A stretch of 41,341 nucleotides of DNA from a virus (IMGVR_UViG_2718217863_000002); one strand, 5' to 3'; counted from the stretch's first letter, positions 2,038 through 2,481 are shown. Notes: generated by a model from the sequence alone, not told the origin. Numbers and translations are program-made.

Positions 2038-2481
2038 TTAGTGCACCGTAAGCTTTGATGGATTATCAGAGATGTCGAATGAAAACTCATCCCCATCTTT
2101 ATTGAAGCTGAAAGAATCAACATTATTTGTCTTAACGGACACTAAATCACCTAAAGGCCCATATACGCAAGTTGCCGTTCCACCGTTAGTAAACAACACT
2201 TCCTTGGTCACACCGGATACATTGGTAATTGTATTTACAGAAACCACGTTTGCTAAATTTTTTGGATAAGCATATTTGATTGACGAATAGTTGATGGTGA
2301 GCACGGTTCCACTATTGCTAATGGCAGCTCGATGGCCCCCATTCATCTCAGCCACCATACTCCCGTCTGGATAATAAGTCACTTTATGCCCATTTTGTTC
2401 AATAACTTTTTTCCCGTCGGAATACTCAGTTACTGTATTAATACCCAACTGAAAAACTTTCGGTTGTTCATTATCTGCCAT
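2038..2481 (-). CDS. hypothetical cargo protein with degenerate internal repeats
   Basis: ORF track, 147 aa; AT-rich; repeated T/V-x-Y-x-DG-like segments; own terminator; lies between att and umuDC. Confidence 0.45.
   Translation of the reverse strand: MADNEQPKVFQLGINTVTEYSDGKKVIEQNGHKVTYYPDGSMVAEMNGGHRAAISNSGTVLTINYSSIKYAYPKNLANVVSVNTITNVSGVTKEVLFTNGGTATCVYGPLGDLVSVKTNNVDSFSFNKDGDEFSFDISDNPSKLTVH

Follow-up and report, generated by a model that had tools for sequence, protein, structure and literature searches.

A prophage cargo gene beside umuDC in Escherichia coli encodes a small beta protein with TCP10/G-box-like hairpin repeats

Introduction

The virus-derived sequence IMGVR_UViG_2718217863_000002 (41,341 nucleotides; hereafter the window, meaning the whole stretch that was analysed) is a piece of Escherichia coli chromosome in which a prophage of about 40 kb follows a fragment of icd. 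We describe here an open reading frame (ORF) on its minus strand (2038..2481; RefSeq CDS WP_042346543.1, product name ‘hypothetical protein’) that encodes a protein of 147 residues, 15.8 kDa and pI 5.2. The ORF is very probably a genuine mobile-element cargo gene, dispensable and horizontally mobile, and its product is best described as a known repeat type, the TCP10/G-box hairpin, joined to an undescribed C-terminal beta region. As an explanation of the whole we favour, with confidence that is evenly balanced, a mobile cargo gene for a non-enzymatic binding protein whose accessory role serves the element that carries it.

Results

A separable cargo gene under purifying selection

The ORF starts with ATG and is free of frameshifts and internal stops, so that the 147-residue protein proposed in the initial annotation, which had been made from the sequence alone, is intact. 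The gene was compared with an ortholog in Raoultella ornithinolytica (locus L002, 76% identical), for which synonymous divergence (dS) is 0.84 and non-synonymous divergence (dN) is 0.138, giving a dN/dS ratio of 0.165. The Shine-Dalgarno region and the terminator hairpin are both kept in Raoultella, full-length homologs at 24–45% identity are found in unrelated bacteria, and the exact protein is present on 570 contigs of a large collection. The ORF is thus a real gene under purifying selection. Both kinds of evidence that the annotation had named as fatal to its reading, clear homology to a housekeeping protein and frameshifts indicating a pseudogene, were looked for and neither was found. One copy elsewhere is broken: in Klebsiella quasipneumoniae (L013, 8001-8228) the copy differs from the window by two substitutions and by the loss of one G from a run of five, which leaves a product of 75 residues, a frameshift that may be real or may be a homopolymer sequencing error. 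The region upstream of this copy is 100% identical to that in E. coli, which indicates very recent exchange between E. coli and Klebsiella.

Base composition sets the gene apart from its surroundings, in line with the low GC content first reported. The ORF has a GC content of 39.6% (GC3 37.8%), against 53.2% for umuC, 50.6% for umuD, 58.6% for the invertase gene pin, 50.5% for the prophage and 49.8% for the whole window. The difference from umuC points to a separate origin for the two genes. The prophage itself is a Klebsiella-type temperate siphovirus integrated at icd in E. coli: its structural region shares about 94–95% identity with KpF5 and KPP5665-2, two temperate siphoviruses of Klebsiella, and the displaced icd fragment and the integrase gene that bound the element place it at the icd attachment site. 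In KpF5 the interval from integrase to tail fibre holds only tiny ORFs. Absence from backbone relatives this close and distinct composition, two marks of a phage cargo gene or ‘moron’, were both found. In a prophage of E. coli strain 3426, moreover, a umuDC pair 93.7% identical to that in the window is followed by unrelated genes instead of the ORF. Taken with a family-wide tendency to lower GC than the flanks (described below), the condition of KpF5 and the umuDC of strain 3426 identify the ORF as separable cargo.

The gene is rare. Its 1-kb stretch occurs in 10 of 5,426 complete E. coli genomes, at 100% identity, and all ten carriers are human isolates where the host was recorded. Close variants are found in K. 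pneumoniae, in the Klebsiella/Raoultella group and in R. ornithinolytica. A word-indexed search of 5.8 billion proteins returned three clusters only, and exhaustive searching of 1.84 billion representatives with an HMMER profile gave 41 matches, about a dozen of them small full-length relatives. These matches fall into two classes: long proteins of 250–1,340 residues, which align only with residues 16–52 of the query, several times each, and match Tcp10_C strongly; and proteins of 113–156 residues, which align with it from end to end, the C-terminal part included. Searches with tblastn found no match in 50,697 INPHARED phage records or in 72,556 PLSDB plasmid records. When one genome per species was searched (185,579 species), the sole match (L014) proved to be a Tcp10_C lipoprotein that shares the repeat only and was not accepted as an ortholog. 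Another candidate, a 7,077-residue adhesin-like protein (P0008) that matches residues 92–136 thirty times, was judged to be compositional or of low complexity.

Relatives with recognisable neighbours occupy variable slots of mobile elements

Wherever family members have recognisable neighbours, they all occupy variable slots of mobile elements. In Raoultella, in Klebsiella and on an IMG/VR contig the gene order is that of the window: invertase, umuD, umuC, the ORF, and the prophage end at icd. The cargo block of the Raoultella locus (L002) also holds dinI. In a Cupriavidus phytorum prophage the gene separates the HNH/terminase genes from the upstream block of genes and is alone on the opposite strand. 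Mu-like elements on metagenome contigs carry it after the Mu-type F/G head genes, again on the opposite strand, and the sequence beyond it changes from contig to contig, being a truncated cas3 in one and a membrane-protein gene in another, so that the homolog forms the very end of the mobile element. In P2-like prophages (L025–L027) the gene, once more on the opposite strand, has the tail-sheath gene FI and an invertase gene on one side and the tail-fibre genes on the other, and lies beside an Acyl_transf_3 gene. This slot is the P2 ‘Z-region’, one of three places where P2-like phages have genes of horizontal origin; in P2 it contains the exclusion gene Z/fun (PMC3091744). On a conjugative element (L020, 1-16450) a homolog of 42% identity (P0004) closes the Trb/TraX transfer operon, next to a resolvase gene and a gene for an SNase-type nuclease, and another homolog lies beside ParB/RepB. 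Linkage to umuDC is confined to the Enterobacteriaceae loci, the gene being without it in six other contexts. In seven of nine contexts the family gene is lower in GC than its flanks, by up to 13 points in high-GC hosts.

Some details of these loci merit record in their own right. The element end that carries a 121-residue homolog seems to abut, in L009 (188-3976), a type I-F cas3 truncated to 538 residues with C-terminal domains only, and higBA lies between cas3 and csy1; in L010 (2-448) the same Mu-like element end abuts the membrane-protein gene. This suggests that a Mu-like transposable element inserted into a CRISPR-Cas locus. The conjugative element L020, with its Trb/VirB-type operon, has its own umuDC-like pair 8 kb from the homolog, so that here, for the second time, the family shares one element with an error-prone polymerase module. 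A serine recombinase, either a Pin/Hin-type invertase or a resolvase, lies 0.2–2.5 kb from a family member in three independent types of element (lambdoid, P2-like and conjugative), which may be just cargo piling up near tail-fibre switches and resolution sites.

Hairpin repeats and an undescribed C-terminal region

The repeated T/V-x-Y-x-DG-like segments noted at the outset are real. The internal repeat VTEYSDGKKVIEQNG (residues 17–31) aligns with VTYYPDGSMVAEMNG (residues 34–48) at a BLOSUM62 score of 44, a value reached by none of 200 shuffles (25.6 +/- 4.1). Only these two copies are clear, with the turns YSDG and YPDG; the later turns ‘NGG’ and ‘KDGDE’ are degenerate. Tandem beta-hairpin repeats with PDG-type turns, by which the TCP G-box is recognised (PMC3776556), are present in the protein. 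Its layout comprises N-terminal TCP10/G-box-like hairpin repeats (residues ~8–55) followed by a family-specific C-terminal beta region (residues ~56–147).

Several comparisons bear on the N-terminal part. Pfam Tcp10_C (PF07202) matches residues 17–41 with 18.9 bits (E 0.0012), which does not reach the gathering cut-off of 36 bits. Sub-threshold matches to the same profile were obtained for 8 of 15 family members (best E 3.4e-5; P0004 scores 20.4 bits), and the NCBI name of one Raoultella ortholog is ‘T-complex 10 C-terminal domain-containing protein’. When PDB sequences were searched with a profile, the matches included designed propeller repeats and, of natural proteins, the G-box of SAS-4/CPAP (E ~1e-7); all of these matches lie within the N-terminal 60 residues and none in the C-terminal half. 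The first three or so hairpins, with their S/PDG turns, therefore convincingly resemble the TCP10/G-box. Membership of the Rhs/YD-repeat proteins was also considered: there was no match to Pfam RHS_repeat, and weak PDB matches to Rhs proteins (E 4e-4 and 5e-3) cover the N-terminal hairpins only. The initial verdict that no family could be recognised thus holds for NCBIfam, PHROGs and PADLOC, to all of which the family is new, and gives way for the repeats, which can be named as TCP10/G-box-like beta-hairpins; the hairpin repeat alone touches Pfam, below threshold.

A structural model was built with AlphaFold2 on an alignment of 15 sequences, a first model on four close orthologs alone having been discarded (predicted local distance difference test score, pLDDT, 55). 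The model used has a pLDDT of 90.8, a predicted template modelling score of 0.74 and 15 strands, and its best fold match is the TCP domain of CPAP. A search of the BFVD fold collection returned nothing at E 1e-3 or better. Across the family the invariant or near-invariant columns are G31, D39, G40, G49, F97 and N99, of which D39 and G40 are invariant. The C-terminal two-thirds have a motif of their own, the near-invariant F97-x-N99 followed by a usually conserved G-G. Conserved columns are turn glycine, aspartate and asparagine residues together with beta-strand hydrophobics, that is, turn and core positions, and they include no catalytic-looking set. As read from the sequence, the C-terminal strands alternate hydrophobic residues on one face, and this amphipathic character suggests a covered or dimerising surface rather than a fully exposed sheet.

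A signal peptide, a lipobox and a transmembrane segment were sought in the protein and none was found, the maximum 19-residue hydropathy being 0.94 (the distant member P0044 just attains the threshold of 1.6). All 13 relatives are acidic, as is the ORF protein. Together with the model, these properties lead us to predict that the product is a small, acidic, soluble, cytoplasmic all-beta protein.

Transcription signals

The terminator assigned to the gene from the start is borne out. It is an intrinsic terminator on the minus strand (2009..2033) that starts 5 nucleotides past the stop codon and consists of an 11-bp stem with five GC pairs and a U-tract; it folds at -15.6 kcal/mol (z = -5.6), with none of 200 shuffles as good, and the equivalent hairpin in Raoultella L002 folds at -17.5 kcal/mol (z = -4.0). 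At the other end of the gene lies a ribosome-binding region (2482..2506, minus; TTCAGGAGAAAAAAAGGGGAATTAA, then ATG), with AAGGAG at the equivalent place in Raoultella and in the IMG/VR locus.

Upstream of this is a block of 66 nucleotides (2520..2585, minus), a candidate promoter/operator with a -10-like TATATT and no consensus -35 element. E. coli and Raoultella are 80% identical within the block and 52–53% identical in the spacer on either side of it, a pattern of conservation that would fit a dedicated control region for the ORF. A search for LexA boxes found none before the ORF, the sole nearby box being that of the umuD promoter. Downstream of umuC the E. coli sequence folds at -3.8 kcal/mol, worse than most shuffles, and the interval before the ORF holds no convincing terminator, so that transcripts from the SOS-controlled umuDC promoter may read through into the ORF. 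Beyond umuC in E. coli a hairpin noticed by eye was rejected, because shuffles fold equally well, and the 7-bp hairpin with a U-rich tail found at this place in Raoultella cannot be distinguished statistically from shuffles. In the Cupriavidus, P2-like and Mu-like contexts described above the family gene stands alone on the opposite strand. We suppose that transcription of the ORF would come from the conserved upstream block or else run on from the LexA-controlled promoter of umuDC, and that it would end at the ORF's own terminator.

The icd end of the prophage and other features of the window

The position between the attachment site and umuDC holds as first described. The window starts with ycgX (DUF1398; 1-405), followed by iraM (1108-1431) and by the displaced 3′ fragment of icd (1534..1701, minus), which marks the host/prophage junction on the attR side, has an Iso_dh C-terminal match and is given in RefSeq as a pseudogene ‘missing N-terminus’. 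Between this junction and the ORF is the remnant of a decayed SOS-response-associated peptidase (SRAP) gene (1833..1987, plus; frameshifted, with an internal stop and partial according to RefSeq). The distance from the ORF to the icd fragment is 337 nucleotides. On the other side the prophage umuD–umuC operon for a Pol V-like polymerase (2668..4354, minus) lies directly upstream on the same strand, with umuC (2668-3933, minus) ending 186 nucleotides before the ORF, umuD at 3935-4354 (minus) and, before umuD, a canonical LexA box (CTGT-N8-ACAG, inside TACTGTATATAAAAACAGTA; 4376-4391, minus). The lambda-type integrase gene (40199-41341) forms the far end of the prophage. A pseudogene similar to the SRAP remnant of the window is found close to the end of the related umuDC-bearing prophage of E. 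coli 3426 (L023, 932-1151), adjoining sapB, and in Raoultella the matching position is taken by an unrelated gene of 266 codons.

Elsewhere in the window, a second near-perfect LexA box, TACTGTACATATAAACAGTA (37789-37804, context 37780-37815), lies inside an ORF for the cI-type repressor of the prophage (37578-38273). The repressor has a helix-turn-helix domain at residues 3–64 and Peptidase_S24 at residues 99–219; the box falls in the interdomain linker and is followed by an ATG that looks in frame, and it might be an internal SOS-controlled start or an operator. Inverted repeats of 74 nucleotides (4817-4890 and 8600-8673, 74% complementary) flank the Pin-type invertase gene (4919-5488) and two ORFs (5580-7739 and 7648-8463) that are without a Pfam match and adjoin a GDSL-domain ORF. 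A second inverted pair of 18 nucleotides (5387-5404 and 8185-8202) has the hix/gix-like core TCGAAAACCAG. The arrangement suggests an invertible switch of host range, with the invertase gene inside the invertible part. The GDSL-domain ORF (779 residues, 8719-11058) lies beside the tail tip gene J and has a C-terminal GDSL/SGNH esterase domain at residues 571–757; this ORF may encode a tail-fibre protein that uses a deacetylase acting on capsule or O-antigen in recognising its receptor. Long G homopolymers occur in the ycgX–iraM intergenic region (G11, 1020-1030) and between umuD and the invertase gene (G8, 4449-4456), and are potential sites of slippage, phase variation or sequencing error. 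An Rfam scan of the window gave no match.

Discussion

One of the closest known systems to the ORF protein is the TCP/G-box domain of CPAP/SAS-4 (PF07202; PDB 4bxp, 4bxq, 4ld1, 4mpz and 4by2). The TCP domain has been described as a single-layer meander that stands free; it has about 20 strands and PDG type-I turns, is without a hydrophobic core, and binds a proline-rich peptide of STIL along one edge (PMC3776556). The ORF protein differs from it in having only two or three recognisable hairpins and 15 model strands rather than about 20, and in its C-terminal two-thirds, where F-x-N-G-G motifs and amphipathic strands are found, whereas the TCP domain lacks a hydrophobic core. It is also encoded on a prokaryotic mobile element without a centriolar partner, so that peptide binding would be an analogy only. 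Among bacteria the same T-E-Y-P-D-G-x-K-V hairpin repeat is found in multi-repeat Tcp10_C proteins (for example P0006, P0011, P0017 and the L014 array), which match residues 16–52 of the query with E values of 1e-25 to 1e-9. These are proteins of 250–1,340 residues with 4–14 repeats, without the family C-terminal region and outside mobile-element cargo slots; the L014 copies and P0011 have hydrophobic N-termini, unlike the ORF protein. In L014 (7419-12738), a metagenome-assembled genome of the Gammaproteobacteria, at least five paralogous genes form a tandem array; they consist almost wholly of Tcp10_C-type ‘YPDGRK’ hairpin repeats, and several have lipoprotein-like N-termini, which means that the G-box repeat has been expanded in some bacteria. 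A likeness to the single-layer beta-sheet proteins OspA and OspB, surface lipoproteins of Borrelia, was statistically insignificant, and homology with them is unsupported.

In its genomic setting the gene resembles P2 Z/fun, each standing alone, with a foreign composition, in a slot whose content differs among related phages. The slot in the window lies beside attR (icd) and a Pin-type invertase gene, that of the P2-like homologs between FI and the tail-fibre genes. The icd site is the one used by e14 in K-12, where mcrA fills the slot between the Pin invertase gene (pinE) and the icd fragment (icdC). With Z/Fun, McrA, Lit, Old and Tin the ORF protein shares neither sequence nor fold similarity. 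The idea that the P2 tail-fibre/sheath locus is one of the published ‘defence hotspots’ was not confirmed, since the hotspot is placed at old/tin in one source (PMC9122126) and the other is silent on the locus (PMC13586616).

What the protein does must be judged from this setting and from its predicted fold. The conservation of structural residues only, in a fold without pocket-forming elements, argues for binding rather than catalysis, and by analogy with the TCP domain we think it probable that the product is a non-enzymatic binder. Such a protein would act stoichiometrically, its exposed sheet or its edge strands holding a protein or peptide partner much as the TCP domain of CPAP holds STIL. 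An enzymatic role or a structural role in the virion is less likely. The recurrence of the family in variable slots of the kind that hold exclusion genes in P2 and in e14 suggests, more tentatively, that the protein may benefit the element by an accessory role in the lysogen or recipient, for example through interference with a host factor or with rival phages or plasmids. The following observations weigh against this interpretation. In the Enterobacteriaceae loci (the window, L002, L013 and L016, and probably L003, where the gene upstream of the homolog is cut and unannotated) the ORF always lies 178–186 nucleotides downstream of umuC on the same strand. The contexts L017, L018, L019 and L031, some of them short and uninformative contigs, show no clear mobile-element hallmark. 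The 186-nucleotide spacer between umuC and the ORF contains no sigma-70 consensus promoter. Finally, NCBIfam, PHROGs and PADLOC offer no family for the query or any member; in PADLOC-DB v2 the query had no match at E up to 10, and the 15 members gave only scattered single matches at E 0.015 or worse.

The strict linkage behind umuC could mean instead that the ORF is the third gene of a prophage umuDC operon, co-transcribed under LexA control and modulating the DNA-damage response, for example through Pol V, RecA* or prophage induction. The lack of a convincing terminator past umuC in the window, a LexA box nearby only at the umuD promoter, the umuDC-like pair 8 kb from P0004 and the dinI gene in the Raoultella cargo block would all suit such an operon, but we consider it improbable. 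Conserved linkage to umuDC and co-regulation with it were not found across the family: umuDC is missing from the neighbourhood of the homologs in the Cupriavidus, P2-like, Mu-like and ParB/RepB contexts, the umuDC of strain 3426 precedes unrelated genes, and the ORF has no LexA box in front of it. The gap between 39.6% and 53% GC speaks for separate origins, the greater conservation of the 66-nucleotide block (80% against 52% for the spacer) suggests that the ORF has its own control region, and Raoultella has its hairpin and U-rich tail after umuC, though this is not significant. At the other extreme, the rarity of the gene, the K. quasipneumoniae copy cut to 75 residues and the want of a recognised family might be taken to mean a non-functional, decaying or spurious ORF. 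There is hardly any room for this, given the dN/dS of 0.165 at a dS of 0.84, full-length homologs at 24–45% identity in distant taxa, a confident model driven by covariation, a conserved ribosome-binding site and terminator and an exact protein on 570 contigs; the sole frameshift, as noted, may be a sequencing error.

A role outside the cytoplasm of the lysogen was also weighed. The initial annotation had called the ORF a cargo gene in a location typical of lysogenic-conversion genes, and the cargo status stands, on the evidence of 10 carriers among 5,426 genomes, of KpF5 and strain 3426 and of the variable slots. In its classical form, an exported or surface factor, possibly for virulence, that alters the interaction of the host with its environment, the idea draws on the att-proximal, AT-rich, stand-alone position typical of such genes, on the human clinical origin of the carrier strains, on the Acyl_transf_3 neighbour of the O-antigen-modification type in P2-like prophages and on the fact that bacterial multi-repeat Tcp10_C proteins can be lipoproteins. 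The secreted or surface sense is nevertheless unsupported and in our view highly improbable, because the protein has no signal peptide, lipobox or transmembrane segment, no secretion-system genes are adjacent and every homolog is acidic and looks soluble. A virion- or tail-associated accessory, either linked to the tail fibre or a spike-like beta protein, would explain why the gene lies near tail-fibre and invertase genes in two phage types. This too is quite improbable: in the P2-like and Cupriavidus prophages the gene and the late operon are on different strands, the protein is encoded by none of the deposited phage genomes, the closest relatives included, and homologs also occur on a conjugative element and beside ParB/RepB. 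The matches to spike proteins reflect generic beta-meander similarity, with the same Z as unrelated folds.

Returning to a cargo-encoded binding protein, a bolder and unlikely extension is that the family founds an undescribed class of mobile-element-borne, small G-box-like beta-meander proteins that act as stoichiometric binders in conflicts among phages, plasmids and hosts. A host defence or a protein of a competing phage might then, for example, be blocked by peptide-in-groove or edge-strand binding. Were this so, the centriolar TCP/G-box fold would have its first functional counterpart in prokaryotes, one that the SOS response might switch on through read-through from umuDC.

For the present the ORF is a well-defined hypothetical gene rather than a discovery, and there is little in it to surprise a phage genomicist. 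If the product is indeed a binder, it would represent a new fold class among the accessory proteins of phages and plasmids, a free-standing beta-meander related to the TCP/G-box, and a tractable 16-kDa example of how such sheets recognise their partners. The gene also marks a Klebsiella-type prophage that takes an error-prone polymerase operon along as it moves among Klebsiella, Raoultella and clinical E. coli, and any effect on phage susceptibility or on SOS-linked mutagenesis would bear on phage therapy and on the evolution of resistance.
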